This document shows, piece after piece, positions 25,102 to 46,410 of a stretch of 64,000 nucleotides of DNA (position 1 is its first letter; each line of letters starts with the position of its first letter). Location of the stretch: positions 608,001 to 672,000 of the forward strand of contig CBDETY010000003.1 in the NCBI GenBank assembly GCA_965243025.1, in the 5' to 3' direction. Under the pieces are notes generated by a model that searched no databases, was not told where the DNA came from, and saw nothing but the letters and a program-made list of their open reading frames with translations. The position numbers and the translations under genes are program-made. The DNA comes from Candidatus Latescibacterota bacterium (GTDB lineage Bacteria > Latescibacterota > UBA2968 > UBA8231).

Positions 25102-25395
25102 CTAAGGTCAGAGTCGGCTGATACGCTCACAGGTCATCCTGTTTTGATCCGTGTTATTTGAGACGGCAACCAGGGTTCTTAACTACCCGCAGGAAGTGAT
25201 AGCCGCTTTCGCCGGCACAGAACTGGTCGGGATCGTTCGCGTGAGTATTGATGGTCTTGTGGTGCGACGCTCAACGCCGAGGCAATCCAGTTTCTTGATG
25301 ACCAACGGTCTTGAGTTTGGTACAAGATTGGCAATGGGAACTGCTCCTGACCGGCGTGTCCGGCAACATCCGGCAGCTTGAGCCGATATGTAGTT

Positions 25396-27066
25396 ATGAA
25401 CCCACTGAAACCAGCGGAGATCCAGGCCGCGCTCGAAGCCGTCGAAGCCGGGGACGCCAGGAGGCTCGAGCCACTTCTGAAAACGAACCCGGCGCTCGTC
25501 CACCAGATCCTCGAGCACGACGGCCACAGCGTAATGCTCAGGCCGACACTGTTGCACCGGACCAACGCCAGGGCCGATCGGGAGCGGCGGCCCCGCAGAA
25601 GGAACAAGGGTGACCTCGACTGCGCCCGACTGCTCATCGACTACGGCGCCGACATCAACAGCCGGGTCCTGGACTCTCTGCCGCCGCTGGAGATGGCAGC
25701 GTGGACGCGCCACCACGATCTCTTCGAGCTGCTGCTGGCCAACGGGGCCGACGTGGAATGCCACACCGAGCTGCCCCCGATCGAGGTTGCGGTCGCCACG
25801 GCTTACGGCAGGGACATGTTCAAAGGCCTGGCGGCTGCCGGCGCGCAGTACGACATCTCCCATACGCTTCGACTCGGACTGCTTCGGGAGACGCGGACAC
25901 TCCTCGAGGTCGACCCAAGCCTCGCCAACACCGAGACGGACCACGGTCTCCCGCTCAATCTGGCGGTCAGCAAGCCGGGCAGCACCAAGCCAAGTCCGGG
26001 GTTGTTCAAGCTGCTGATCCGGTTTGGCGCCGACATCCACGCCGAGGACCGGTTCGGCCTGACGCCGCTGAAGGCAGCCCGCCTGCCCGGCAACGACAGG
26101 ATCGTGCTGGCTCTGCTGGACATGGGCGTAGAGGACGACATTTACGGCGCCCTCCTGGCGCGCGACGAGGACAGGGTCAGGGCAATCCTGCGGGCTGATC
26201 CCTCCCAGGCACACCCGGTCGCCGCCTGGCCCGATCGGGGGCCAACGCCCCCCATCGTCTGGGCGGTCTGGTCCGGCTCGACTCGTCTCGTGAAGATGAT
26301 TCTCGAGCACGATGTCGTCCTCAACATGTCGGGGAATCCGCTCGGCATCGCCATCCAATACGGCTACGACGAGATCGTCCGTCTCCTGCTCGACCACGGC
26401 GCTTCGCCCGAATGCGGCGACTGCAGCGGCTGGGCGGGCGTTCGCACCGGCAACTGGGACCGGGTCCCGGGGGGCGGTCCTGCACCGGACGACGATCCGC
26501 CGGTCTCGGTGCCGCTCTACACGGCGCTGCGCAACGGCACGACCGCCGCCGTGGAGATGCTGCTGGATGCGGGCGCCGATCCGAACTCCACGCTGACCGG
26601 GACAGGAACTATGGAGCTGCGCAAAAGCGAAGGAGCGTACCCATGCCCGATCCCATGGCACATCCAGGCAATCTGGAGACGTGAAGTCGATTCGGTTCGG
26701 AATGTCCGGCCCGACCTGGTTGATGCCTGGCTGACAGGTGATTCCTGGCCGAACGAGTTCTCTGGAGAAGGGTGGGATTCCCGCGGATTCGAGGCTCCAC
26801 GCGGACTGGATCCACTGGCCTGTGCGAGTGTGTTGGGCGCCACTGATTGTGTGGACCCGTTGCTCGCCGCGGGAGCGGCCGTCGAGTCGGTGAGTGATGG
26901 GGCGGATATGGGCTGGTGTACACCCTGGATCCAAGCCCCTTCAAAGACAAAGAAAAGAAGAAGTCGTAGACAGGATCAGGGCATAAGTATGGACACACCG
27001 CATCTGGTGATGGGCATTGTGGCTATTGCACGCGATGTGCTTCTCGTCGGCGGAGAGGGTACATGA
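25396..27066 (+). CDS. Ankyrin repeat protein
   Basis: LLIDYGADIN, LLANGADV, FGADIHAEDRFGLTPL, NPLGIAIQYGYDEIVRLLLDHGA, LLDAGADPN. Confidence 0.85.
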   Translation: MNPLKPAEIQAALEAVEAGDARRLEPLLKTNPALVHQILEHDGHSVMLRPTLLHRTNARADRERRPRRRNKGDLDCARLLIDYGADINSRVLDSLPPLEMAAWTRHHDLFELLLANGADVECHTELPPIEVAVATAYGRDMFKGLAAAGAQYDISHTLRLGLLRETRTLLEVDPSLANTETDHGLPLNLAVSKPGSTKPSPGLFKLLIRFGADIHAEDRFGLTPLKAARLPGNDRIVLALLDMGVEDDIYGALLARDEDRVRAILRADPSQAHPVAAWPDRGPTPPIVWAVWSGSTRLVKMILEHDVVLNMSGNPLGIAIQYGYDEIVRLLLDHGASPECGDCSGWAGVRTGNWDRVPGGGPAPDDDPPVSVPLYTALRNGTTAAVEMLLDAGADPNSTLTGTGTMELRKSEGAYPCPIPWHIQAIWRREVDSVRNVRPDLVDAWLTGDSWPNEFSGEGWDSRGFEAPRGLDPLACASVLGATDCVDPLLAAGAAVESVSDGADMGWCTPWIQAPSKTKKRRSRRQDQGISMDTPHLVMGIVAIARDVLLVGGEGT

Positions 27067-30502: not shown

Positions 30503-31168
30503 ATGGCCACCGCACGAATACCGCAGGACCGGCTTCCCGGGCCCCCGGCCGACCCCAACGGCGACCCCGCCAGGCAACTGGCTCCCGCCAACGAGCTGGA
30601 GGCGGCCATCGGCCGCCAGATCCGCGACTTCCGCACCCAGCTCCACATGACCGCGGCCGAGCTCGCCAGCCAGGCCGGGCTGTCGCCGGGCATGCTCTCC
30701 AAGATCGAGAACGGCCTCGCCTCGCCTTCGCTGGCCACCCTCAAGGCCCTGTCGCGGGCGCTCAATGTCCCGGTAACCGCCTTCTTCCGCAAATACGAGG
30801 AGGAGCGGGAGGTGTCCTTCGTGCGCAGGGGAGAGGGGCTCAACATCGAACGCCGCGGCACCCGCGCCGGGCACCAGTACCAGCTGCTCGGGCACACCGT
30901 CAACAGGCAGCTGCTCGTCGAGCCGTACCTGATCTCGCTGACCGAGGAGTCGGACGTGTTCCCGCTCTTTCAGCACCGCGGCGTCGAGTTCATCCACATG
31001 CTCGAGGGGCGGGTCACCTACCGCCACGGCAACCGGACCTACCGCATGGAGGCCGGGGACTCCCTGTTCTTCGACGCCGACGCCCCGCACGGGCCCGAGG
31101 AGCTGGTCGAGCTGCCGATCCGCTTTCTGTCGATCATCATCGAGCCGCGGGCCGGCAGCGGAGACTGA
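30503..31168 (+). CDS. XRE-family HTH-cupin regulator of the type found beside methylamine/sarcosine operons
   Basis: LSPGMLSKIENGLASPSL, ERRGTRAGHQYQLLGH, FQHRGVEF, GDSLFFDADAPHGPEEL. Confidence 0.9.
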   Translation: MATARIPQDRLPGPPADPNGDPARQLAPANELEAAIGRQIRDFRTQLHMTAAELASQAGLSPGMLSKIENGLASPSLATLKALSRALNVPVTAFFRKYEEEREVSFVRRGEGLNIERRGTRAGHQYQLLGHTVNRQLLVEPYLISLTEESDVFPLFQHRGVEFIHMLEGRVTYRHGNRTYRMEAGDSLFFDADAPHGPEELVELPIRFLSIIIEPRAGSGD

Positions 31169-31200
31169 GCAGAAAAGCCGGTAGATAGGAGCAAAAGCGC

Positions 31201-32100
31201 ATGTGTGGAATCGCCGGAATCATGTACAAGGGGAAGCTGCTGGGCACCGGGCAGGCCCTGATCGACATGCTCGACGGCTGCCAGCACCGCGGCCCGGACT
31301 CGACCGGGTTCGCCCTCTACACCCGGGAGGAGGAAGGGCGGCTGCGGCTGCGTTTCTTCGTCGGCGAGGGGGAGGAGGCGGAAACCGCGATCGCCCGCAT
31401 CGCCGAGGCGGTCGCCGGGCAGGGCGCCACTGTCGTCTCCGAAGAGAGGACCGGCAAAAACTACAAGCTGACCGTCGAGTACGACGGCGACGTACAGAAG
31501 TTCTCCTACGCCGTCGAGCAGGCCGCCAAGGTGGTCTCGATCGGCGCCAGCCTCGAGATCATCAAGGACGTCGGCGGGGCGCACGACGTCGACGAGCGCT
31601 ACGGCGTCGACAGCTTCACCGGCAGCCACGGCCTCGGCCACGTCCGCCTCGCCACCGAGTCCGACGTCAAGCCGGAGGCTTCGCACCCGTTCTGGGCTAC
31701 CGGGTTCGCCGACGTCGCCATCGTCCACAACGGCCAGATCACCAACTACTGGAAGATGCGCCGCCGCCTCGAGCGCCGCGGCTTCCAGTTCACCACCGAC
31801 AACGACAGCGAGCTGATCGCCGTGTACCTCGCCGACAAGCTGTCGCAGGGGATCGCCCTCAAGCAGGCGCTGGCCGACTCGATCGACGACCTCGACGGCA
31901 CCTTCTCCTTCCTCGTGTCGACCCGGGACGAGATCGGCTACGCCAAGGACCGGCTCGCCGCCAAGCCGATGATCCTCTACGAGAACGACGACCTCATCGC
32001 CGTCGCCTCCGAGGAGGTGTCCCTCAACCGCCTGTTCCCCGGCCAGGCCCTCGACACCCGCGAGCCCCCGCCCGGAGATTTCGACACATGGTCCAGGTAG
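31201..32100 (+). CDS. glxB: Class II glutamine amidotransferase (GlxB / N-methylglutamate synthase subunit A-like)
   Basis: N-terminal MCGIAG, HRGPDSTG, GHVRLATES, HPF, VHNGQITNY, DSE, LDGTF. Confidence 0.85.
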   Translation: MCGIAGIMYKGKLLGTGQALIDMLDGCQHRGPDSTGFALYTREEEGRLRLRFFVGEGEEAETAIARIAEAVAGQGATVVSEERTGKNYKLTVEYDGDVQKFSYAVEQAAKVVSIGASLEIIKDVGGAHDVDERYGVDSFTGSHGLGHVRLATESDVKPEASHPFWATGFADVAIVHNGQITNYWKMRRRLERRGFQFTTDNDSELIAVYLADKLSQGIALKQALADSIDDLDGTFSFLVSTRDEIGYAKDRLAAKPMILYENDDLIAVASEEVSLNRLFPGQALDTREPPPGDFDTWSR

Positions 32101-34042
32101 ACCTCGCCGAGATCCCGGTCCGCCGCGCCAACGAGCTGATCCGCGAACACGGGGAGGCCGGTGAGGACGTCGAGGTCCTCAACCCCGACGCCCGCCACCA
32201 CATCGGCGTCGGGCTGACCGCGCCGGTCCGGGTGCGCGTGCGCGGCTCGGCCGGGTACTTCTGCGCCGGCCTCACCGACCGCGCCCGCTTCGAGGTCGAC
32301 AACAACGCCGGCTGGGGCCTGGGGGACAACATGTACACCGGCTCGGTGGTGGTCCGGGGGAACGCCGGGGCCATTGCCGGGGTCGCCATCCGCGGCGCCG
32401 AGCTGGTGGTCCACGGCAACGTCGGCTCGCGCGCCGGCCAGGTGATGAAGGCCGGCACCCTCTGCTGCGCCGGCAACGCCAACTTCATGGCCGGGTACAT
32501 GATGTACGGGGGGCGCATCATCATCCTCGGCGACTCGGGCGAGCGCGTCGGCGAGGACATGACCGGCGGCGAGATCTTCGTCGGCGGCAGGGTGCGGGAC
32601 CTCGGCAGCGACGCCGCTCTGACCGACGCCGGCAGCGACGAGATCGACGGCGTCCGCGAGTTCCTCGACCGCTGGGAGATCCCCTTCCGCGGCGGCTTCA
32701 GCAAGATCGTCAACGCCGGCGGCAAGCTGCGCTACGGGACCGAGGAGCCGACGGTGCGCAGCCTGCCGTTCTTCACCTACTCCGGCGGCTCGCAGTACTG
32801 GAACGGGAAGATCCAGGAGGACATCGGCATCAAGTCGCGGATCGGGCGCTACCGCATCCGCGGGTACGGCGCGGCGCGGCCGCTGCCCCACCTCGCCGAC
32901 CTGGGGTTCCGCGCCGACCTGTCGCGGGCCGGCAGCGACCCCGAGGTCCTCTCGAGGGTGCGCATGCGCACCGAGATCGGCGGCCTCAACGGCGCCGAGC
33001 CGCTGAAGCTGAGCATGCCGGTGATGGTGGCGCCGATGAGCTACGGCGCCCTCAGCCGCTCGACGAAGCAGGCGGTGGCGATCGCCTCGGGGATGTCGGA
33101 CATCGCCGAGAACACCGGCGAGGGGGGGATGAGCGACGCCCAGAGGACTCGGCCAAGCAGCTGATCTTCCAGTGCCTCGGGGGGCGCCTCGGCTGGAACA
33201 TCCACGACATGAAGCGGGCCGACGGCCTCGAGATCTACATCTCGCAGGGGGCCAAGCCCGGGCTCGGGGGCCAGCTGATGGCGAAGAAGGTGACCCCGGA
33301 GCTGGCCGCCATCCGGGGCATACCGGCCGGCATCGACCTGCGCTCGCCGTCGCGGCATCCCGACATCCTCGGGGCCGACGACCTCGTCATCAAGATCGAG
33401 GAGTTCCGCGAGGCCACCGGGTACCGCCTGCCGGTGAGCGTCAAGCTCGGGGCCGGCAGGGTGCGCGACGACATCAAGATCGCGGTGAAGGACGGCTTCG
33501 ACTTCGTCGAGCTCGACGGCATGCAGGGGGCCACCGGCGCCGGCAGCGGCGAGGTCATCGACCACGTCGGCATCCCGACCCTGTCGGCGATCATCGAGGC
33601 CGAGGAGGCGCTGGCCGAGATCGGCCGCCGCCGGGACATACAGATCGTGCTCATGGGCGGCCTGCGCGACGGCGTCGACGCCGTCAAGGCGCTCTGCCTG
33701 GGAGCGGACGCGGCGGCGTTCGGCACCTCGGTGCTGATCGCCGGCGGCTGCATCGCCTGCATGCAGTGCCACGTCGGCCAGTGCGTCACCGGCATCGCCA
33801 CCCAGGACCCGGAGCACGAGGAGCGCTACCACGCCAACACCGAGGCCCTCAACATCCACCGCTTCCTCGAGTTCGTGCGCTGGCAGATCGCCGCCATCAC
33901 CCAGGCCCTCGGATACGCCGACACCGGCGACCTCAACCGCGGCGACCTCGTCGCCCTGACCCCGGACGCCGCGGCCATCACCGGGCTGCCGTACCAACCC
34001 CGGCCGCAAGCGGAAGCGCCCGCGGGAGTCAGCCTGCCGTGA
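32088..34042 (+). pseudogene. GXGXG (GlxC-like) + FMN-binding glutamate synthase (GlxD-like) fusion with a 1-nt frameshift near 33146 (real or sequencing error)
   Basis: MVQVDL...GSAGYFCAG...GERVGEDMTGG...PMSYGALS...NTGEGGM in one frame, then IFQCLGGRLG...SQGAKPGLGG...VSVKLG...DGMQGATGA...CIACMQCHVGQC.TGIATQD in the next; one extra G in 'cagaggactc' restores QRDSAKQ. Confidence 0.85.
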
Positions 34043-36585
34043 GCGTCTACGACCTCCACCGCATCGAGATGCCGCAGGCCCCCTCGGGGTTCGCCGACGA
34101 CAGCGGGGGGACGCATTTCGTGCCGGCCCCCTGCCAGGTCGCCTGCCCGGTGGGGACCGACGCCCCCTCGTACATCGCCCTCATCTGGGAGGAGAAGTAC
34201 GCCGAGGCGTTCGAGGCGATCACCGCCACCAACCCGTTCAGCTCGATCTGCGGGCGCGTCTGCGACGCCCCGTGCGAGCCGGCCTGCCGGCGCACCGACA
34301 GCGACGGGCCGCTGCAGATCCGCAACCTCAAGCGCTTCGTCATGGACAAGGTGGGGCACCGGTACGACCCGCCGCCGGTGCCGGTGACGAAGAAGGAGAG
34401 CGTCGGCATCGTCGGCTCCGGACCTGCCGGGCTGACCGCCGCCCACGACCTCTGCGTCGCCGGGTACACCGTCGACGTCTACGAGATGAGCGACCGCCTC
34501 GGCGGCATGATGGCCTGGGGCATACCGGCGTTCCGGCTGCCGCCCGGGATCATCGACGAGGACATCGACCGCCTTACAGGCAAGTGCCAGGGGCTCAACG
34601 TCCACCTCAACACCGAGCTGGGGAAGCACGTTCACCTCGAGGAGCTCAAGGAGCGGCACGACGCCGTGCTGCTGGCGATCGGCTCCTGGTGGGGCAAGCC
34701 GATGGAGATCCCGGGGGAGGAGCACCCGCTGGTGGTCGACGGGGTCGGTTTCCTGCGCCGCGTCAACGCCGGCGAGAGGCCTACCCTGCCGGAGAAGGTG
34801 GTGGTCGTCGGCGGCGGCGACGTCGCCATGGACGCCTGCCGCGTCGCCAGGCGGCTGCCCGGCTGCGAGCACGTGACGGTCATCTACCGCCGCGGGCCCG
34901 ACGAGATCCCGGCGCGCCGCATCGAGCTCGAGGGGGCCGTCGCCGAGGGGATCGAGTTCGTCTACCACACGCAGCAGGTCTCCGTCGCGGAGCACGGGGA
35001 CGGACTGCGGCTGCGGTGCGTGAAAACCGGGCTCGGGGAGCCGGACGAGAGCGGCCGCCGCAGCCCGGTCGCGGTGCCGGGCAGCGAGCACGAGATCGAG
35101 TGCGGCATGGTGATCGCCGCGGTCGGACAGAAAGGGGTGTGCGGGGAGCTCGACCGCATCGGCATGATGCTGCCCGACCGGGTGCGCACCCGCTGGGAGA
35201 CCATGCGCACCGACGATCCCAAGGTCTTCGCCGCCGGGGACGGCGCCTTCGGGGGCTCGACCATCGTCCTGGCCATGCACCACGGACAGCGGGCCGCCTA
35301 CTACATCGACCAGTACCTCGAGGGGAACGACGACCCCATGCCGTACCGCACCCCCTACCGGACCCGGCAGGTCGACGTCGCCCAGGACATGATGTGGGAG
35401 CGCTTCAAGCTGCAGCACCCCGAGTTCTTCGGGCTCGGCGCCGTGCCGGTCGAGTTCCCCGAGATCGAGGCGACCTACGACGACGACACCGCGAAGAAGG
35501 AGGCGGCCCGCTGCTACCGCTGCGACGCCGAGACCGGAACCCCCGACTACTCCGTGCAGCACCGCGAGGACCTGTTCTCGATGGCCCGCATCGGCCCCGA
35601 CGAGCACGACAAGCGCCGGGCGATGCTGCAGCGCCGCCTCGAGCCCCGGGAAAACCCGTTCCCCGAGGAGCGCCCCGCGCAGCTCGACGACATCGTCTTC
35701 CTGCCGGCCAACCTGTCGCGGCTGGTCATCGACCCGTACCGCGAGGCCTGCCGCGTCGACTTCGATCTCGGCGGCCGGATGCGGCTGGAGCACCCCTTCC
35801 TCGTCACCGGGTTCGACGGGACGCCGCGCGAGGTGCGCACCGCCGTTGCCCGGGGGCTGAGCGAGGCCGGGGGCGTCTACCTCGGGGCCCGGAAGCTTCC
35901 CGGGGAGGAGGAGGTCCCCTGGGTTCAACTCCTGGTAGGGGGAGGGGATGGGGCGGACCCCGGGGCCGCGGGCTTCGTACAGCCGTTCGCCGCGGATAGA
36001 CCGCCGCCCACCGGCCTGGAGCGGGTCGTCGAAGGCCAGTTGCTCGGGCTGGCGGTGTCGTCGGCGAGGGACCTCGAAGCGGCGCTCGCTTACGCTCTGG
36101 AAGGCGGGCTCGACCTGCTGGTGCTCGACGGCACCGGCGGGCTCGCCGCAAGTGCCTGGCCCGAGCTGCGGGGGGCTCCCGACCTCGGGCTGCTGCGGGA
36201 CGCGGTCGCCATCCTCAGGCGCCTCGACCGCGAGGAGGAGGTCGACCTCGTCTGGTTCGGAGGGGTGCGCTCGGGAACCGACGCCGCCAAGCTCGTCGGC
36301 CTCGGGGCGGTCGCCATGGTTCTGGGAGTCTCCACCGGGATCGCCGCCGGAGGCCGGATCTCCGGGGATTCCCTGGTCTTCGAGGCCGGCCTGGGAACGG
36401 ACGAGCGGGCCGAAGCGGTGGCCAACCTGATCAGGGCGAACACCGGCGAGGCCTCGATGATGGCGCGCTGCACGGGCAAGACCGATCTCCACAACATCGA
36501 GCCGGAAGACCTGCGCGCCCTCACCCTGGCGACCGCGGAGAGCGCCGGCCTGCCGCTGGCCGGGACCAGGGAAGAGAGCGGCTGA
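34039..36585 (+). CDS. GltD-like FAD/NAD(P)H Fe-S oxidoreductase fused to a degenerate glutamate-synthase FMN-barrel domain
   Basis: PCQVACP, CGRVCDAPCEPACRR, IVGSGPAG, VVGGGDVAMD, FAAGD, EAARCYRC, then LDDIVFLPANLSR...FGGVRSGTDAAK...MARCTGKTDLHNIEPEDL; GTG overlaps the upstream TGA. Confidence 0.88.
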   Translation: MSVYDLHRIEMPQAPSGFADDSGGTHFVPAPCQVACPVGTDAPSYIALIWEEKYAEAFEAITATNPFSSICGRVCDAPCEPACRRTDSDGPLQIRNLKRFVMDKVGHRYDPPPVPVTKKESVGIVGSGPAGLTAAHDLCVAGYTVDVYEMSDRLGGMMAWGIPAFRLPPGIIDEDIDRLTGKCQGLNVHLNTELGKHVHLEELKERHDAVLLAIGSWWGKPMEIPGEEHPLVVDGVGFLRRVNAGERPTLPEKVVVVGGGDVAMDACRVARRLPGCEHVTVIYRRGPDEIPARRIELEGAVAEGIEFVYHTQQVSVAEHGDGLRLRCVKTGLGEPDESGRRSPVAVPGSEHEIECGMVIAAVGQKGVCGELDRIGMMLPDRVRTRWETMRTDDPKVFAAGDGAFGGSTIVLAMHHGQRAAYYIDQYLEGNDDPMPYRTPYRTRQVDVAQDMMWERFKLQHPEFFGLGAVPVEFPEIEATYDDDTAKKEAARCYRCDAETGTPDYSVQHREDLFSMARIGPDEHDKRRAMLQRRLEPRENPFPEERPAQLDDIVFLPANLSRLVIDPYREACRVDFDLGGRMRLEHPFLVTGFDGTPREVRTAVARGLSEAGGVYLGARKLPGEEEVPWVQLLVGGGDGADPGAAGFVQPFAADRPPPTGLERVVEGQLLGLAVSSARDLEAALAYALEGGLDLLVLDGTGGLAASAWPELRGAPDLGLLRDAVAILRRLDREEEVDLVWFGGVRSGTDAAKLVGLGAVAMVLGVSTGIAAGGRISGDSLVFEAGLGTDERAEAVANLIRANTGEASMMARCTGKTDLHNIEPEDLRALTLATAESAGLPLAGTREESG

Positions 36586-36595
36586 GGCGGGCGAG

Positions 36596-36760
36596 TCCGC
36601 TTCACTTTTTCAGCTACTCCATCGACACGCGGGCAAGGTAGGTCGAGCAGGGCGGCGGCTTGCGGCTCCCCTGCCCGGAGTGGGTCTGGGCGTGGCCCTT
36701 CTTCCGCTTCACTTCTTCAGCTACTCCATTGACACCGGGGGCGAGGTAGGACCGGGGAGG
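36596..36760. repeat. Two imperfect ~55-bp intergenic direct repeats
   Basis: tccgcttcactttttcagctactccatcgacac...aggtagg at ~36596 and tccgcttcacttcttcagctactccattgacac...aggtagg at ~36702. Confidence 0.7.
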
Positions 36761-36806
36761 CTGAGGGCTCGCGCCACCTGCGCGGGGCTTGGCCTTCCCG
36801 CCGCCT

Positions 36807-39800
36807 TCAGCGCAGCAGCGTGAGCTTGCGCGTCCGCACCCCTTCGGGGGTCACCAGCCTGTACAGGTAGATGCCGCTGGCAAGGGAACGGCCCTCGTTG
36901 TCGCGCCCGTCCCAGTGGAGGCGGTGACTGCCGGCTTTCTGGTCTCCCCGGCGCAGGACCGCCACCCGTTGTCCGGTGAGCGCGAAGATCTCCAGGCGCG
37001 CCGGCCCCGGAGAGAGGAGGACGTAGGGGATGACGGTGTTGCTGTTGAACGGGTTGGGGGCGTTCTGCTGCAACAGGAGCTCCTGCTGCCGGTTCTGCCT
37101 GAGGCCCGGGGGCTTTGCCGGGATTCCCGGGTGCAGGTGAAGCCGCGTGTCCAGCAGCAGGATCCCGCCGTCCTGCAACCCGCAGGCCAGGCTCGTCCCA
37201 TCCGGGGAAAACGCCACGGAATTGACCTTGCGCACATGTCTTGCGAGGGTGGCGGCGATCTCCTTCCCGGGTACGTCCCACAGCTTGACCCTGCCGTCGT
37301 GGGACGCCGAGGCAAGGGCTGTTCCATCGGGAGAAAACGCCACGGAGCGGACCGCGGCGGTATGCCCGGAGAAAGTGACGGCGCTTCCTTCGTCCAGGTC
37401 CCACAGGCGGACGGTTCCGTCCTCGGATCCGGAGGCGAGGATCGAGCCGCCCGGGGAGATCGCCACCGAATGGACCGCACCCCCGCTTCCGCGGAGTCCA
37501 TTCCCTTTTCTTCTGGCGTCCCAGACCTTTATGGAACCGTTGTTCAATCCGACGGCGAGGGTGGTGTCGTCGGAGACCGCCACCGAAAGGACAGGGACCG
37601 AAGCCCAGTAAAGGGTGATCAGGTTCGCCCCGGCCGGATCCCAGAGCCTGACTGTCTTGTCCTCCGATCCGGAGGCCAGCAGCGCGCCGCTTGGGGAAAA
37701 CGCCACGGAACTGACCACATCCAGGTGGTCGTACAGGGTGGCGGTACTCTTCCCCGTATCGAGGTCCCACAGCTTGACGGTCTTGTCCTCCGACCCGGAA
37801 GCGAGGGTCCTCCCATCGGGGGAGAAGTCAACCGACCGGACAACTGCCGTATGGTCCTCCAGACTGGAGGTGCTGCCCGTTCCCGGGTCCCACAGCAGGA
37901 CCGAGTTTTCCGACCCGGAGGCCAGGGTCGCCCCGTCGGGGGAGAAGGAAACCGAAGCGACCTTCCCTGCATGTCCTTCGAGGCTGCTGCTGCTTCCCGT
38001 CGCCGCGTCCCACAGTCTGACCGTGCCGTCAGCCGAGCCGGAAGCCAGCCGTGATCCGTCCGGGAAGAAGGCCACCGAGTTGATCCAGGCCGTATGTCCG
38101 GAGAAGGTTTCGGCGCTCCGCGCCGCCATGTCCCACAGAAGAACCGCACCGCCCTCCGACCCGCAGGCCAGGCTGCCTCCATCCGGGGAGAAGGCGACCG
38201 ACCTGACCCCGCCCCTGTGCACCAGGAGGGTGGCGGTATTCGTTCCCGCCCCTGCGTCCCAGAGCTCAACCGACCTGTCGGATCCCGAGGCCAGCGTCCT
38301 GCCGTCGGGCGAGAAGGCCACGGAATTGACCGCGTCCCTGTGCGCCGGAAGGGTGGCGGTATTCGTTCCCGATGCAAAATCCCAGAGCCTGACCGATTTG
38401 TCGGCGGACCCGGACGCCAGGGTGGCGCCGTCCGGTGAGAACGCCAGGGAATGGACGAGACCTGAATGCCCTTCGAGGGTGCCGGCGTCGGTTCCGGCCG
38501 CCACGTCCCACAGCCCGACGGCTCCCCCGGGCGAGCCGAAGGCCAGTGTGGCCCCGTCCGGTGCGAAGGCAACGCATCCGCTCCCGGGCCCGATGTCGGC
38601 GATACGCTGTCCGGCGTCGACGTGCCAGAGCTCGACGGAGCCCCCCTCCGGGCCGCCCGCGGCGAGGAGGGTCCCGTCGGGCGAGAAGGCCAGGGAATGG
38701 GCTTCTTCGGCGGGGAGGCGCAGCAGGGGAGCGCCCGGCGGCGCCGCGTCGTACAGCCAGATGCCGATGCCGCTGGCCACCGCGAGGCGGCTGCCGTCGG
38801 GGGAAACGGCTACCGCCCTGTCCCCGAGTCCGATCCTGCCTTTCCCCAGGCGGACGGTCCCGTCGTCGAGCACCCGCCGGGTCTGCAGGTCGTCCTCGAA
38901 GACGGGAATGCCGATCCCCGTGGCGTCGAAGGTCACCCGTCCGAGCCCCGGAACCGCTGCCTCGACCCTGTTGGTTCCCGGGTTCGGACCCAGGGTGAGG
39001 AAACATTCCGCCCTTCCCCCGGCAGCGGTGGTCACCTTCTCGACCGCGAACTTTTCGCGCAGCCTCCCGGACCCCGCAGTGACGGAAAATGCGACAGCGA
39101 CGTTTTCCAGTCCCCTGCCGTTCCGGTCCCTTACGGAAACGACGAACGGATCCTCCAACCGGGAGCCGGTCCATCCCCGGCCGTCGTCCCCGGAGATTTT
39201 CACCAGCCTGTGCGGGATGGGACGAATCCACTCCGACACGTCCCACAGGCGCAGGGTGCCGTCGAGCGCGGCCGAGGCGAGAATCCCGCCTTGCGGTGAA
39301 AACTTCACCGAAGTGATCCGGAAGTCATGCCCCCTGAAGGTGGCGGTGGCTTCCCCTGTGCCGACGTCCCACAGCCGGATCGTGCCGTCCGACGCCGAAG
39401 CGATGGTGGCCCCGTCCGGGGAAAAGGCCAGGGAATTGACGTTCGTTCCATGTCCGGACAGGGTGGCGGTGTTTATCCCGGACGCCACCTCCCACAGCCT
39501 GGCCGTGGCATAGGCCCCCGAGGCGAGCAGCTGCGAGTCCGGTGAGAAGGCCAGCCACCTCACCCGGCCTCTGTGCCCCTCGAAAGCCATGGAAAGTTGC
39601 CCCGTATTCACCTCCCACAGGAGCAGCCAGCCGTAGGCTGACCCAGCCGCCAGAGTGGCCCCGTCGGGAGACACGGCCATGGCTCCGACCCGGCCTTTGT
39701 GTCTCCCAAGGGAGTAGGTTCTGTTGGTCCGCTCGACCAGGTCCCACAGCTTGATCGTGGAGTGGGACCTGGAGGCCAGCGTCCTCCCGTCGGGGGCGAA

Positions 39801-41177
39801 CACCACCGAGGTCCAGCCATGGTGCGTAAAGGTTGAGGTGATCTCTCCCGTATCCAGGTCCCTCAGCTCGATCGAGGTGTAGGTTCCCGAGGCCAGCGTC
39901 CTGCCGTCGGGGGAAATCGCCAACTCGCCCCAGGAGTCGTCGAACTCCAGGGTAGCCGTGGGTGTGCGCGTCCCCAGGTCCCAGAGTTTGACGGTGCGGT
40001 CCTTCGACGCCGAAGCCAGGGTCTTTCCGTCGGGGGCAAAGGACAGCGAGCTGACCAGGTCCGAGTGTCCCCGGAGAGCGGCGATCTGGTTGGGGGAAGT
40101 CTGCCAGAGAACGACAGCCTTCCAGGCCCTGTTCCCATTAACATCGACTGCCGAGACCCGCACTTTGTGGGCGGCGGAATCGGCAAGGCCCGAATTGAGG
40201 GCGGACGGCACGACACCGTCGAAATCGAATTCGGCGACGGCTCTTTTCCCGGACAACCTGCGGCACGCCTTGACCTCAAAAAATCCGGCGGAGCTGTGCG
40301 GTTCCCGCGTAGTCACGAACAGGGACACCTGCTGAAGACCCTCCGCATCCTGGATCTCGAGGCGTACCGGGACGGTTTCAGACCCTGCGGGATACTCGGG
40401 CAGCGAAAGGAGCTCGACCGTCGGGGCGGTCGTCTCTTCGGCCGGCGCGCCCGGCAGGAAGTAGGGGTGCACGGCCAGGAACCCGGCGCTGCACGCGGAC
40501 AACCGGTTCCTGGTGCGGCCGTAGGACATGAGGTAGGAGTCATCGCGGAAATCGTGAGGCAATCCGAAGGCGTGGCCGAGCTCATGGGCGGCCAGAACCC
40601 AGTCGAAGTCCGCCGAAACCACTGCGCTGCCGCTGTTTCTTCCCTTCCTGCCCCCCTTGCCCCGCGCGCTTCCGGCGCCCACCAGGTTGCTGCTGTTGTC
40701 GCTGACGATCAGGTAGACGCTCTGGGAGAAGTCGAATGACCCGGCGACCTCGACGGCTTCACCTTCGTGAGTGAGGTAGTGGCTGTCAGGGTGCCGGCCA
40801 TTCACCCGGTGAACCAGCGGCTCTCCACGGACATCGGTCTCGATGCGGAAGGTCCGGTCGCCGTACCCGTGCCACCGCAGCTGCCTGGCATAGAAGGACT
40901 GAACCTGCCTGATGACGGTTTTCATCGAATCGACCACGCCGGGCCGAAAGGGACGGTCGCTCGGCAGGAAGTAGATCAGCCGCACCGTGCGCGGGGCTGC
41001 GGAGTCGAGGTCGGCCAGCCGCTTGGCGGCGGCCGTGGTGTCGCGGGTCAGGTGATCGAAATCGAGGGGGCGGCAGAAATGCACGCTGCCGGGAGGGGAA
41101 GACGCGTGACCGGCGGCGGCCGTGAACAGAACGAGGCCGAACTGGAGAAATGCAAAACGAAGAACCCGGGGTTTCAT
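36807..41177 (-). CDS. Secreted metzincin-like protease + 7 WD40 + Ig-like + 14 WD40 + FlgD/T9SS-A-like C-terminal domain (paralog A)
   Basis: Signal peptide MKPRVLRFAFLQFGLVLFTAAAGHA; HELGHAFGLPHD...LMSY; GH..V.SVAFSPDG..LASGS.D.TV.LWD repeats; QNAPNPFNS...WDGRD..G..LASGIYLYRL. Confidence 0.9.
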   Translation of the reverse strand: MKPRVLRFAFLQFGLVLFTAAAGHASSPPGSVHFCRPLDFDHLTRDTTAAAKRLADLDSAAPRTVRLIYFLPSDRPFRPGVVDSMKTVIRQVQSFYARQLRWHGYGDRTFRIETDVRGEPLVHRVNGRHPDSHYLTHEGEAVEVAGSFDFSQSVYLIVSDNSSNLVGAGSARGKGGRKGRNSGSAVVSADFDWVLAAHELGHAFGLPHDFRDDSYLMSYGRTRNRLSACSAGFLAVHPYFLPGAPAEETTAPTVELLSLPEYPAGSETVPVRLEIQDAEGLQQVSLFVTTREPHSSAGFFEVKACRRLSGKRAVAEFDFDGVVPSALNSGLADSAAHKVRVSAVDVNGNRAWKAVVLWQTSPNQIAALRGHSDLVSSLSFAPDGKTLASASKDRTVKLWDLGTRTPTATLEFDDSWGELAISPDGRTLASGTYTSIELRDLDTGEITSTFTHHGWTSVVFAPDGRTLASRSHSTIKLWDLVERTNRTYSLGRHKGRVGAMAVSPDGATLAAGSAYGWLLLWEVNTGQLSMAFEGHRGRVRWLAFSPDSQLLASGAYATARLWEVASGINTATLSGHGTNVNSLAFSPDGATIASASDGTIRLWDVGTGEATATFRGHDFRITSVKFSPQGGILASAALDGTLRLWDVSEWIRPIPHRLVKISGDDGRGWTGSRLEDPFVVSVRDRNGRGLENVAVAFSVTAGSGRLREKFAVEKVTTAAGGRAECFLTLGPNPGTNRVEAAVPGLGRVTFDATGIGIPVFEDDLQTRRVLDDGTVRLGKGRIGLGDRAVAVSPDGSRLAVASGIGIWLYDAAPPGAPLLRLPAEEAHSLAFSPDGTLLAAGGPEGGSVELWHVDAGQRIADIGPGSGCVAFAPDGATLAFGSPGGAVGLWDVAAGTDAGTLEGHSGLVHSLAFSPDGATLASGSADKSVRLWDFASGTNTATLPAHRDAVNSVAFSPDGRTLASGSDRSVELWDAGAGTNTATLLVHRGGVRSVAFSPDGGSLACGSEGGAVLLWDMAARSAETFSGHTAWINSVAFFPDGSRLASGSADGTVRLWDAATGSSSSLEGHAGKVASVSFSPDGATLASGSENSVLLWDPGTGSTSSLEDHTAVVRSVDFSPDGRTLASGSEDKTVKLWDLDTGKSTATLYDHLDVVSSVAFSPSGALLASGSEDKTVRLWDPAGANLITLYWASVPVLSVAVSDDTTLAVGLNNGSIKVWDARRKGNGLRGSGGAVHSVAISPGGSILASGSEDGTVRLWDLDEGSAVTFSGHTAAVRSVAFSPDGTALASASHDGRVKLWDVPGKEIAATLARHVRKVNSVAFSPDGTSLACGLQDGGILLLDTRLHLHPGIPAKPPGLRQNRQQELLLQQNAPNPFNSNTVIPYVLLSPGPARLEIFALTGQRVAVLRRGDQKAGSHRLHWDGRDNEGRSLASGIYLYRLVTPEGVRTRKLTLLR

Positions 41178-41254
41178 GGCTGGTCTCCGTTGATTTCGGT
41201 GCAAGCCGCAACAACCGCCGCTGACCAGAAGGTAGTTCAGGGCGGGCGAATACA

Positions 41255-41736
41255 AAGGCGGGCTCGACCTGCTGCTGCTCGACGGCACCGGCGGGATCGC
41301 CGCAGGCCCCTGGCCCGAGCTGCGGGGCGCTCCCGACCTCGGGCTGCTGCGGGACGCGGTCGCCATCCTCAGGCGCCTCGACCGCGAGGAGGAGGTCGAT
41401 CTCGTCTGGTTCGGGGGGGTGCGCTCGGGAACCGACGCCGCCAAGCTCGTCGGCCTCGGCGCGGTCGCCATGGTCCTCGGGGTCTCCACCGGAATCGCCG
41501 CCGGAGGCCGGATCGCCGGGGATTCCCTGGTTTTCGAGGCCGGCCTGGGAACCGCGGAGCGCGCAGAAGCGGTGGCCAACCTGATCAGGGCGAACACCGG
41601 CGAGGCCTCGATGATGGCGCGCTGCACGGGCAAGACCGATCTCCACAACATCGAGCCCGAAGACCTGCGCGCCCTCACCCTGGCGACCGCGGAGAGCGCC
41701 GGCCTGCCGCTGGCCGGGACCAGGGAAAGCGGCTGA
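41255..41736 (+). pseudogene. Duplicated 3' stub (~160 codons) of the GltD-like fusion gene
   Basis: Near-identical to 36101-36585; frame open to TGA but no 5' part. Confidence 0.9.
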
Positions 41737-41848
41737 GCGCGGCCCTGCCTCCACTTCACTTCTTCAGCAAACACATCGCACTCGGAGGCAGACCGGGCAG
41801 GGGCGCTGGCTTTCGGCATCCCTTCCCCGCCTGGCCTGCCCGCCGCCT

Positions 41849-44800
41849 TCAGCGCAGCAGCGTGAGCTTGCGCGTCCGCACCCCTTCGGGGGTCACCAGC
41901 CTGTACAGGTAGATGCCGCTGGCCAGGGGGCGGCCCTCGCTGTCGCGGCCGTCCCAGTGGAGGCGGTGACTGCCGGCTTTCTGGTCTCCCCGGCGCAGGA
42001 CCGCCACCCGTTGTCCGGTGAGCGCGAAGATCTCCAGGCGCGCCGGCCCCGGAGAGAGGAGGACGTAGGGGATGACGGTGTTGCTGTTGAACGGGTTGGG
42101 GGCGTTCTGCTGCAACAGGAGCTCCTGCTGCCGGTTCTGCCTGAGGCCCGGGGGCTTTGCCGGGATTCCCGGGTGCAGGTGCAGCCGCGTGTCCAGCAGC
42201 AGGATCCCGCCGTCCTGCAACCCGCAGGCCAGGCTCGTCCCATCCGGGGAAAACGCCACCGAATTGACCTTGCGCACGTGCCTTTCAAGGGTGGTGATGA
42301 TCTCCTTCCCGGGTACGTCCCACAGCTTGACCCTGCCTCCATGCGACGCCGAGGCGAGGGCAGTACCGTCGGGGGAAAAGGCCACCGAGCGGACCGGTGC
42401 GGCATGCCCGGACAAGGTGGTGGCGCTGCCTTCGGCCAGGTCCCACAATTGGACGATTCCCTCCTCGGATCCCGAGGCGAGCATCGTCCCATCCGGGGAG
42501 AATGCCACTGAATGGACCCCTTCTCCGCGTTCCGAGAACAGCCTCATTTTCCTCTTTTTCACGTCCCACAGCTTGACCAGGCCGTTGGCCAGGCCGACTG
42601 CGAGGGTGGTGTCGTCCGTGATCGCCACGGAAAGGACCGGGGACAAGGCCATGATGAGGGTGTCGGTGTTCCCGGTGGCCGGGTTCCACAAGCGGACCGT
42701 TCTGTCCGCGGATCCCGTTGCGAGCAGAGTTCCGTCAGGGGAGAAATCCACGGAAAGGACCGCCTTCCTGTGACCGTTCAGGGTGGCGGTATTCCTTCTC
42801 GTGACGGGATCCCACAGCCGAACCGTCCCGTCCTCGGAAACGGAAGCGAGAATCGCACCGTCCGGCGAGAAGGCAACGGACCGGACGAAATCCGTATGCC
42901 CCTCGAAGGTGGAGGTCCTTCCTGAGTCGACGTCCCAGACCAGGACCGAGTGTTCCGATCCGGACGCGAGCGTCGCCCCGTCGGGTGAGAACGCCACCGA
43001 AGGGACCTCCCCCGTATGCCCTCCGAGGCTGCTGCTGCTTCCCGTCGCCACCTCCCACAGTCTCACCGTGCCGTCAGCCGAGCCAGAAGCCAGCCGTGTC
43101 CCGTCCGGGGAGAAAGCCACCGATTTGACCCAGGCCAGATGCCCGGGAAGGGTTACGGGGCTCTGCGTCGCCACGTCCCAGAGCAGAATCGCGCCGGCGC
43201 CAAACCCGCAGGCCAGGTTTCCTCCGTCCGGTGAGAAGGCTACCGACCTGAACGGGCCTGTATGCGGCAGGAGGGTGGCGGTATTCGTTTCGATACCTAC
43301 ATCCCAGAGCTCGATCGCGCTGTCCGAACAGGATGCGAGCATCCTGCCGTCGGGCGAGAAGGCAACCGAATTGACCCCGTCCCTGTGCGCGGAAAGGGTG
43401 GCGGTATTCGCGCCCGTTCCGGCATCCCAGAGCTTGACCGTGTTGTCGTCGGACCCCGAGGCCAGGGTGGCGCCGTCTGGTGAGAACGCCAGGGAATTGA
43501 CGAGACCTGAATGCTCTTCGAGGGTGGCGGTGTGCGATCGCGTCGTCACGTCCCACAGCCTGACGGCCCCCTCCGCTGAACCGGAAGCCAGAGTTGTCCC
43601 GTCCGGGGAAATGGCCAGGCATCGGCTTCCCCGGCCAAGAGCGGCAATTTCCCGTCCGGTGCCAGCCTCCCACAGCACCACCCCGTCGTCACCCGGCCCG
43701 ACCCCGGCCAGGATCGTCCCATTGCGGGAGAAGGCCAAGGAATGGACTTCCCCCGCGGCATGCAGTAGCACCGGGGCCCCAACCCCTTCGGCGTCGTACA
43801 GCCAGATTCCGATCCCGCTGGCCACCGCGAGGCGCCTTCCGTCGGGCGAAAAGGCTACCGACCTGTCCCTGAGTCCGATCCTGCCTTTCCCCAGGCGGAT
43901 GGTCCCGTCATCGAGCACCCTCCTGGTCTGCGGGTCGTCCGCGGCGAAGACGGGTATGCCGATCCCAGCGGCCTCGAAGGTCACCCGTCCAAGGCCCGGA
44001 ACCGCTGCCTCGACCCTGTTGATCCCCGGATCCGGGCCCAGGGTGAGGAAACATTCCGCTCTTCCTCCGGCAGCGGTGGCAACCGTTTCAACGCCGAACC
44101 TTTCGCGCAGCTTTCCACCGCCCTCGGTGACGGTGAAGGTGACGGCGACGTTTTCAAGCCCCCTGCCGTCTCGATCCCGCACGGCAACGACAAACGGCTC
44201 CTCCAGTCGATATCCCGTCCACCCCCTGCGGCTGTCTCCGGATATTTTCACCAATCTGTGAGGATGGGGCCGCAGCCACTCGGACACATCCCAGAGTCGT
44301 ACCGTGGCGTCGCGCGAGGCGGAGGCGAGAATTCCTCCCTGGGGGGAAAACGCGAGCGCATTGATCCAGCCCCCATGCCCTGTAATAGTGGCGACGTGTT
44401 CCCCGGTCTCCAGGTCCCACAGGAGAATGTTGCGATCCGACACCCAGCCAAGGGTGGCCCCGTCGGGGGAAAACGCCACGGAACTGGCGTGCCTCCGTTT
44501 CCCGGATAAGGTGGCGGTATTCAATCCCGACGCCGTGTCCCACAACTTGACCCCACCGTAGTCGGCAGAGGCGAGCACCTTCGAGTCGGGGGAGAAGGCC
44601 ACCGAGTTCACCGGGCGGACATGCCCCTTGAAGACGGCGGAAAGACGTCCCGTCTTCACGTCCCACAACTGCAGCATTCCGTCAGCCAACCCGCAGGCGA
44701 GCATCGCCCCGTCGGGGGAAAGGGCCACGGAGCCGACCCGGCCCTTGAGCCCTTCCAGGGAAGCGGTATTGGTTTGCGTCCCCAGGTTCCACAGCTTGAC

Positions 44801-46222: not shown

Positions 46223-46410
46223 GGGCTGGTCTCCGTTGATTTCGGTGCAAGCCGGCAACAACCGCCGCTGACCAGAAGGTAGTTCAGGGCGGGCGAATAC
46301 AGAAGCTCGATCCAGTGATTCCTGGTTTCCTGTCCTGTTCCTTGTCTTCGCTTTCTTGATGAAAAGGAAATGGCATGGCGGCCATCTTGTGCGCGCCCCG
46401 ATTGAACCGG

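Follow-up and report, generated by a model that had tools for sequence, protein, structure and literature searches.

A conserved operon joining N-methylglutamate-synthase-like proteins to a GltD-like reductase with a degenerate second barrel in a Candidatus Latescibacterota bacterium

The N-methylglutamate pathway is a main bacterial route for drawing carbon and nitrogen from methylamine. Its N-methylglutamate synthase, MgsABC (equivalent to GlxBCD; EC 2.1.1.21), consists of three separate subunits without a dedicated reductase subunit, as in the mgsABC-gmaS genes of Methylobacterium extorquens DM4, and the source describing these reports that the redox cofactors of the synthase are unknown and that the pathway lacks detailed biochemical characterization (PMC6237917). 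Two further systems come close to the locus described here: NADPH-dependent glutamate synthase (GltS), composed of GltB and GltD (PDB 1ea0, 2vdc, 6s6s, 7mfm), and dihydropyrimidine dehydrogenase (DPD; PDB 1h7x and others). According to PMC8097209, the glutaminase domain of GltB comprises residues 1-422 and its catalytic barrel stands beside a truncated barrel (the central domain), which forms a lining of the ammonia tunnel and possibly arose by duplication, while DPD has a catalytic, FMN-binding barrel of DHODH type with an 8Fe ferredoxin domain behind it. The operon considered here occupies positions 30503-36585 of a 64,000-nucleotide window (the whole stretch of DNA that was analyzed; positions 608,001 to 672,000 of contig CBDETY010000003.1, assembly GCA_965243025.1) from a Candidatus Latescibacterota bacterium, and encodes a GlxB-type amidotransferase, a GXGXG-barrel fusion and a GltD-like reductase that carries a second, degenerate barrel at its C-terminus.

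Four plus-strand genes lie in this interval, and open reading frames (ORFs), Pfam and NCBIfam agree with the places and domains that an earlier reading of the sequence (the original prediction) had assigned to them. Behind a regulator gene, 31201..32100 encodes a GlxB/MgsA-type class-II (Ntn) glutamine amidotransferase of 299 aa with an MCGIAG start and cysteine at position 2 (GATase_6 8e-20, GATase_7 4e-19), and 32088..34042 a GXGXG beta-helix fused to an FMN/2-oxoglutarate barrel (Pfam GXGXG and PF01645), resembling MgsB joined to MgsC and 651 aa long when intact. The last gene specifies a protein of 848 aa, of which residues 1-547 (34039..35679) form a GltD-like NAD(P)H:FAD reductase module with an N-terminal 2x[4Fe-4S] region and a linker, and the remainder (35680..36585) a degenerate TIM barrel of MgsC/GltS type, hereafter the pseudo-barrel, recognized through hhalign, AlphaFold and VIA. 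The start of the barrel fusion overlaps the amidotransferase stop by 13 bases and the GTG start of the reductase gene overlaps the stop of the barrel fusion, suggesting that the three enzyme genes are translationally coupled.

With MgsABC the operon shares an amidotransferase of GlxB type and ~300 aa, the gene order amidotransferase, GXGXG, FMN barrel, and probably a genomic association with type III glutamine synthetase (GS III; gmaS-like) and Sox/Mgd-like genes; its pseudo-barrel also carries the MgsC-type N-terminal FDDLVFL..LSR....YRE.C and C-terminal ARC.GK...N.EPEDL.A.T......G.PLAGT. The amidotransferase is 34-43% identical to genes at the MgsA position of classical clusters and 66-95% identical to its orthologues in 17 loci. 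In contrast to the three separate subunits of MgsABC, as found in loci L034-L036, GXGXG and barrel form one protein in 18 of 18 loci, the active barrel has a GltB-type Fe-S site and lacks the MgsC insertion, and an NAD(P)H reductase fused to a degenerate barrel is added; further differences are that in this genome the operon is not adjacent to gmaS or mgd and that the implied reaction would be net reductive. Classical MgsC-size barrels themselves display two forms of the Fe-S region, both with a ~17-residue insertion: three of the five aligned (L034, L035, L008b) are without the Fe-S cysteines and two (L036, L008a) keep C..C..C....C. The cysteine-keeping form may also take electrons from a partner.

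GltB/GltD and the operon have in common a Cys-1 amidotransferase, an FMN barrel with QGAKPG, a C-x5-C-x4-C site, GXGXG and a GltD reductase. However, what is a single alpha chain in GltB is here divided in a three-chain system of permuted order, with GXGXG before the barrel; the amidotransferase is ~120 residues shorter, and an extra barrel is carried on the reductase chain. Kinship of this barrel with the central domain of GltB was considered and is not supported, there being no PF04898 match at E 0.01 in the operon, while both hhalign and VIA place it on the FMN domain. Its likeness to the central domain would be a functional analogy only, one in which the barrel pair of the operon looks like an independent version of GltB's active and truncated barrels. 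DPD likewise places a TIM barrel behind a GltD-like module in one chain, and Foldseek aligns the two over up to ~980 columns, but the barrel of the operon is of GltS/MgsC type and degenerate and, in Pfam, is followed by no ferredoxin domain. By these comparisons the enzyme is one that would work like NADPH-GltS, is built from MgsABC-type parts plus GltD, and fits the architectural definition of neither family. A literature search, with subscription journals outside its scope, returned no paper on a GltD plus GltS-barrel fusion or a fourth subunit of N-methylglutamate synthase, nor was either found in passages of PMC8097209, PMC6237917, PMC3870248 and PMC5023230. The feature is real, intact, widespread and uncharacterized.

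The three proteins very probably constitute one NAD(P)H-driven enzyme of GltS type, which would be a multi-subunit amidotransferase belonging, within the glutamate-synthase family, to the GlxBCD/MgsABC branch. In the proposed cycle, the Cys-1 amidotransferase would hydrolyze a gamma-glutamyl amide, the freed amine would move to the FMN barrel and add to 2-oxoglutarate, and FMN would reduce the resulting imine; NAD(P)H would then recharge FMN, the electrons travelling through the GltD-like subunit, with its FAD and two [4Fe-4S] clusters, and the barrel's GltB-type Fe-S site. Such an electron path, from the GltD-like module to the Fe-S cysteines of the active barrel, appears to be fully encoded, in keeping with the NAD(P)H coupling that the original prediction proposed. 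The C-terminal barrel would pair with the active barrel about a rough two-fold axis, so tethering the reductase, and may cover its catalytic face, a part played in GltB by the truncated barrel of the central domain. We assign a probability of roughly 0.5-0.55 to the reading that the operon performs the N-methylglutamate synthase step in this bacterium, a role whose substrate is read from gene distribution. The reaction would be gamma-glutamylmethylamide + 2-oxoglutarate + NAD(P)H -> N-methylglutamate + glutamate, and the partners would be a gmaS-like type III glutamine synthetase and an mgdABCD-like dehydrogenase encoded 4 Mb away, with the XRE-cupin regulator exerting control. A more speculative extension, to which we give less than even odds, is that this reductive N-methylglutamate synthase names the electron donor of the pathway, that GmaS and the synthase cycle as do glutamine synthetase and glutamate synthase (GOGAT), carrying methylamine nitrogen into glutamate without free ammonia, and that the docking module goes back to one protomer of an ancestral MgsC barrel dimer, which degenerated and was fused to GltD, so that the pair of active and dead barrels known from GltB arose a second time independently.

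In the barrel fusion, the GXGXG domain covers residues 35-166 (32190-32585; Pfam E 1.2e-14) and PF01645 (Glu_synthase) spans 32997 to 34042 over two frames (E 1.9e-10 and 2.6e-76). The translation carries NTGEGG, QGAKPG and the cysteine cluster CIACMQCHVGQC, all three of which had been picked out earlier. The cysteines form a GltB-type C-x5-C-x4-C site without the 17-residue insertion of classical MgsC and align with those of the GltB of the same genome, and the barrel profile matches GltB chains at E 1.8e-45. Judged by its residues, the GltB-like site fits the delivery of electrons from GltD, and it would be compatible with a plain GOGAT as well.

The copy of the barrel gene in the window has a frame break near 33145, where one G is missing in the GG run 33145-33146. 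The original prediction took this as a frameshift in need of repair, and, with a shortened duplicate of the 3' end of the operon lying 5 kb downstream, it could indicate that the genes of the operon are decaying into pseudogenes in this genome. Comparison over 32000-34500 with Logan contigs from four public runs, which belong to three studies, shows in all four an extra G "put in behind 33144", at a depth of 7.7/7.7 in X1, 9.78/9.78 in X3, 4.39/4.39 in X5 and 5.8/20.4 in the RNA-library X19; apart from this G, the contigs of X1 and X3 equal the sequence of the window. The contigs of the RNA library are no measure of transcription. The protein region that results from restoring the G, MSDAQRDSAKQLIFQ / ...NTGEGGMSDAQRDSAKQLIFQ..., is exactly that of the intact 651-aa orthologue of a 95%-identical relative (L002), and the fusion is an uninterrupted ORF of 647-657 aa in 18 of the 18 loci examined. 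All other frames of the operon are open and 91-97% identical to full-length relatives. The source genome is assembled in 3 contigs. In the 95%-identical relative, on a long contig of a metagenome-assembled genome (MAG; L002:10567-13114), the reductase-barrel gene shifts frame twice in its C-terminal part; as these changes affect a different gene from the break in the window, they fit assembly errors, as expected of long-read consensus sequences, rather than shared decay. We take the break in the window to be a consensus or assembly error or a minor strain variant and not gene decay, and a decaying cluster is very improbable. The public runs that contain this DNA are mostly sponge metagenomes.

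The reductase module is recognized by Fer4_20 (residues 30-105, 1.4e-22), Pyr_redox_2 (122-416, 7.7e-28) and NF009410 (6e-120), with TIGR01318 under its cut-off (1.8e-75); its Foldseek matches are NfnB, GltS beta and DPD at E 1e-27 to 1e-40, with 6s6s_E at 7e-30. Over the C-terminal ~300 aa PF01645 remains sub-threshold (E 0.0019; 17.9 bits, cut-off 20.4). In hhalign, however, a profile of this domain (A2, n=18) matches that of the barrel fusion (A3, n=15) with 97.5% probability at E 7.4e-12 over 165 columns of 29% identity, which together with the alignment upholds the earlier description of a second glutamate-synthase-type barrel devoid of the motifs and cysteines of the first; the match to the same genome's GltB, located in the FMN domain, is weak at E 0.23. 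AlphaFold models the whole reductase fusion with a predicted local distance difference test (pLDDT) score of 82.5, the barrel domain standing at about 90, with most of its 10-residue blocks at 77-97, and the domain alone at 79.4. The predicted fold is that of FMN-linked TIM barrels, with flavocytochrome b2 (Z 18.3) and isopentenyl diphosphate (IPP) isomerase II (Z 17.7) as matches in VIA, supported by Foldseek, and GltS alpha at rank 21 (Z 15.4; 243 residues onto FMN domain 839-1188). The fold search was rejected as proof of GltS kinship, given the higher scores (Z 17-18) of alpha-hydroxyacid oxidases and type II IPP isomerase; it is thus the profile match to the partner barrel, not the fold, that singles out the kinship of the pseudo-barrel with GltS/MgsC.

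Alignment with the active barrel shows the pseudo-barrel to be without the strands bearing MS.G.LS, TGEGG, SRYG, QGAKPG and VK.GA, without a ~45-residue segment and the DGMQGGTGA loop, and without the whole Fe-S region. It keeps the MgsC-type N-terminal motif FDDLVFLPANLSRLVIDPYREAC, an MgsC-type C-terminal tail, and a strand of phosphate-binding type, GG.RSGTD..K, that is invariant in 110 sequences. It also evolves faster than the rest of the protein: matches to the CBAR piece at E 1e-10 were obtained in no more than 5 of 24 loci, with an identity of 36-46% in L001, L003 and L020 and of 75-83% in the 95% relative L002, against 62-95% for the reductase part. The second barrel is, as judged by sequence, a degenerate paralogue of the operon's active barrel. 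The idea that it supplies a lost N-terminal motif in trans was dropped, as the active barrel keeps a diverged copy, PHLADLGF..LSR. Other arrangements of the domain were encountered among its homologues: a GXGXG-barrel-pseudo-barrel chain without GltD (P0130, 1,031 aa, 3 contigs), an all-in-one chain that is possibly a read-through artefact (P0127, 1,486 aa, 1 contig), and apparently free-standing forms of ~365 aa (P0159/P0165/P0189).

The invariant strand raises the alternative that the C-terminal barrel is a true second site, binding flavin or another phosphorylated ligand as does the FMN barrel of DPD. The domain profile matches the phosphate-binding strand of IMPDH, lactate oxidase and flavocytochrome b2 at E 1e-6 to 1e-4, PF01070 (FMN_dh) matches in several homologues, and the model of the whole protein aligns end to end with DPD. 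Such a site is nevertheless improbable in view of the loss of MS.G, TGEGG, SRYG, QGAKPG, VK.GA, the ~45-residue segment and the Fe-S region, of the much faster evolution of the domain, and of the position of the conserved loop, which a model of the complex places in a protein-protein interface. A role as a docking module is the more probable one for the degenerate barrel, and we hold it with some confidence.

That model paired the barrel fusion (A3, in the sequence of L002) with the pseudo-barrel (A2, in the sequence of the window), using alignments built by the authors and three controls. The interface score (ipSAE) was 0.80, 0.82 and 0.80, against 0.00 in all three controls, with pLDDT of at least 86 for the partner and at least 79% of contacts common to the runs; in calibration, 58 of 80 solved complexes attained this ipSAE mark, as did 2 of 110 mismatched pairs, and these frequencies apply only approximately where own alignments are used. 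The predicted interface is roughly two-fold. The pseudo-barrel's invariant IVFLPANLSRLVID (the LPANLSRLVID segment), disordered in the monomer model with pLDDT <50, lies on the HVGIPT loop (493-497) of the active barrel, and the equivalent N-terminal segment of the active barrel (264-283) meets the equivalent loop (186-190) of the pseudo-barrel. Modelled contacts also include the GG.RSGT loop of the pseudo-barrel and, in the active barrel, the QGAKPG loop and residues 422-433. A place in the predicted interface could explain why a phosphate-type motif is kept without flavin. Independent hints of barrel pairing come from the fusion proteins P0130 and P0127. The model supports binding of the pseudo-barrel to the active barrel. 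In the proposal that an inactive barrel docks the reductase, the docking part is thereby strengthened and the loss of catalytic motifs agrees with it, but inactivity does not follow with the same force, the GG.RSGTD..K strand being invariant. If the domain does act in this way, a dead barrel borne on a reductase would be a clear instance of a pseudo-enzyme domain put to use in assembly.

The connection to methylamine comes from elsewhere in the genome. One type III glutamine synthetase, at 603 bits, exceeds the TIGR03105 cut-off; its gene, ~4 Mb from the operon, adjoins SoxB-, SoxA- and SoxG-like genes, the composition of mgdABCD. In Table 3 of PMC6237917, gamma-glutamylmethylamide synthetase falls in the type III family. 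The operon is the only GlxBCD-type set in the genome. A separate canonical GltB of 1,545 aa is also encoded, and a GltB of ~1,500 aa is present in 41 of 41 related genomes, indicating that the operon is not the housekeeping GOGAT.

These 41 genomes (G000 included) were surveyed for the operon, GS III, the SoxA-A3 domain and MgsC-size barrels of 440-540 aa. GS III and SoxA-A3 are present together with the operon in 15 genomes, none of which has an MgsC-size barrel near GS III or SoxA; in nine others GS III and SoxA-A3 occur without the operon and an MgsC-size barrel lies within 10 kb of GS III and/or SoxA; and the remaining 17 have neither GS III and SoxA-A3, nor the operon, nor an MgsC-size barrel near such genes. 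The same 24 of the 41 genomes thus hold GS III, SoxA-A3 and a barrel of MgsC type or pseudo-barrel. GS III and SoxA are at most 3.5 kb apart in 14 of the 15 operon carriers, and in G019 (L037) a distance of 3.7 kb separates the operon and its regulator from the sox-GS III cluster. The full cluster mgsA-mgsB-mgsC-gmaS-sox was found in three of the nine classical genomes, those that were fetched (L034-L036). Co-occurrence of the operon with GS III and SoxA extends to five of five genomes reached from loci, one of them G003. The exclusive pattern among relatives implies that the operon stands where N-methylglutamate synthase is needed in this lineage, and it appears to replace the classical enzyme there. 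The methylamine link that the original prediction had suggested is strengthened by this exclusivity and by the clustering of the gmaS-like and mgd-like genes.

The same distribution bears on whether the operon might instead encode a glutamine-dependent NAD(P)H glutamate synthase, a split and permuted GOGAT that would serve ammonium assimilation with the type III glutamine synthetase and have no special tie to methylamine. All modules of NADPH-GltS other than the central domain are present, the motifs for 2-oxoglutarate and FMN resemble those of GltB, as does the Fe-S site, a tree that carries a long-branch warning places the active barrel with GltB, TIGR03105 bears the name glutamate-ammonia ligase, and in proteobacteria the operon co-exists with classical mgsABC. 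Yet a canonical GltB is already present throughout the 41 relatives, the operon is confined to genomes with GS III and SoxA-like genes (all 15 carriers have them, and none of the 17 genomes without them has the operon), it excludes classical mgsABC within the family, and its amidotransferase, at 299 aa, is of GlxB and not GltB type. On balance, a plain GOGAT is unlikely, though less so than a second active site in the C-terminal barrel.

Several observations weigh against N-methylglutamate synthase as the role of the operon. Neither gmaS nor mgd is adjacent to it within the annotated ~22.7-47.4 kb of the window, as the original prediction had itself remarked, and 20 of 24 loci have no adjacent GS III, their neighbours varying among LarA-like, MFS, DAO and ABC transporter genes. 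In G012, the GS III and SoxA matches are 3.3 Mb apart. Four of four proteobacterial genomes (G041-G044, reached via L013, L008, L006 and L017) have the operon plus a classical MgsC-size barrel beside GS III; there the operon is an addition, and the two systems may differ in substrate, net redox chemistry or regulation. Aestuariivirga litoralis, a carrier available in culture, has a classical set as well as the operon. Four of the 15 operon-bearing relatives (G004, G010, G016, G023) have further PF01645 barrels elsewhere, and the 41 genomes are kin, so that the pattern may reflect few gains and losses. The complex score is the model's own confidence, obtained from author-built alignments. In the barrel phylogeny, which had been put forward as a check, the active barrel is joined with a single GltB sequence (99/95), a grouping flagged as a possible long-branch artefact; 10 of the 18 inner branches are unresolved and the lone GltB row sits on a branch of 3.2 substitutions, so the tree does not discriminate between MgsC and GltB as the nearer kin of the active barrel.

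In G004, G010, G015, G016, G021 and G023, a further class of PF01645 barrel is encoded by ORFs of ~540-575 aa that lie apart from the GS III and Sox genes.

A widespread and highly conserved variant that includes an NAD(P)H reductase would offer a testable answer to the source of electrons in the N-methylglutamate pathway. If this is true, the prediction of methylamine use from genomes would need revision, as carriers in this lineage would be scored as being without mgsABC. New here are the resolution of the frameshift at read level, a controlled complex prediction with a pseudo-symmetric interface, and the three-way exclusive phyletic pattern.

Far from being rare, the architecture is widespread. 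Among the 120 matches listed, homologues of the reductase fusion are mostly ~840 aa long, 65-97% identical and bear only generic names, with source labels that name Gamma- and Alphaproteobacteria and Planctomycetes among other groups. The pseudo-barrel profile recovered 105 proteins at E <=1e-30, many of them fragments, among 1.84 billion cluster representatives. A synteny survey, also advised in the original prediction, showed the order amidotransferase, fused barrel, reductase plus barrel to be kept in 17 of 24 loci from species genomes of several phyla; six others end at a contig edge and L001 is without a detectable GATase match. GS III adjoins the operon in four of the 24 (L003, L008, L009, L023). 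Since analysis of neighbours was noisy in high-GC loci (antisense shadow ORFs, clusters 3 and 5), only families confirmed by Pfam or NCBIfam were used. In marine alphaproteobacterial MAGs (L004, L006, L007), the operon is followed by a homologue of the LarA-like nickel-pincer racemase, an MFS transporter and a DAO-family flavoprotein. In a Rhodospirillales MAG (L008:1128-16169), three GlxBCD-type sets are direct neighbours: a classical set with GS III on the minus strand, the reductase-coupled operon with GntR-like and XRE-cupin regulators, and a second classical set.

The first gene of the operon, 30503..31168 on the plus strand, encodes an XRE-family helix-turn-helix plus cupin regulator of PuuR-like architecture (Pfam HTH_3 2.3e-15, Cupin_2 2.2e-12), with a weak PuuR match below the cut-off in NCBIfam. 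Orthologues lie upstream of the operon in L002, L008 and L037, the last with 77% identity. A promoter scan returned 0 sigma-70-like sites, a result that is uninformative for this lineage. At the other end, a terminator-like hairpin with a T-run (36583..36604, plus strand) has a nine-pair stem that overlaps the last stop codon, a consensus match only.

Flanking genes are on the other strand and unrelated, encoding a sugar-phosphate isomerase-like barrel and a giant WD40 protein. Eukaryote-like WD40 proteins of 1,670 and 1,470 aa are encoded on the minus strand at 36807-41819 and 41849-46261 of the window, and an ankyrin-repeat protein of 562 aa, likewise a eukaryote-like repeat protein, at 25378-27066. 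A tandem duplication of ~5.05 kb (41257-41736, plus strand, with 36101-46300) copies the last ~159 codons of the reductase-barrel gene and also the adjacent giant WD40 gene, the latter at 69-98% identity by segment. The duplicated 3' piece of the reductase-barrel gene, 5 kb downstream, has 95% nucleotide identity and a frame open to the stop, is without the upstream reductase part, and looks like a duplication remnant.

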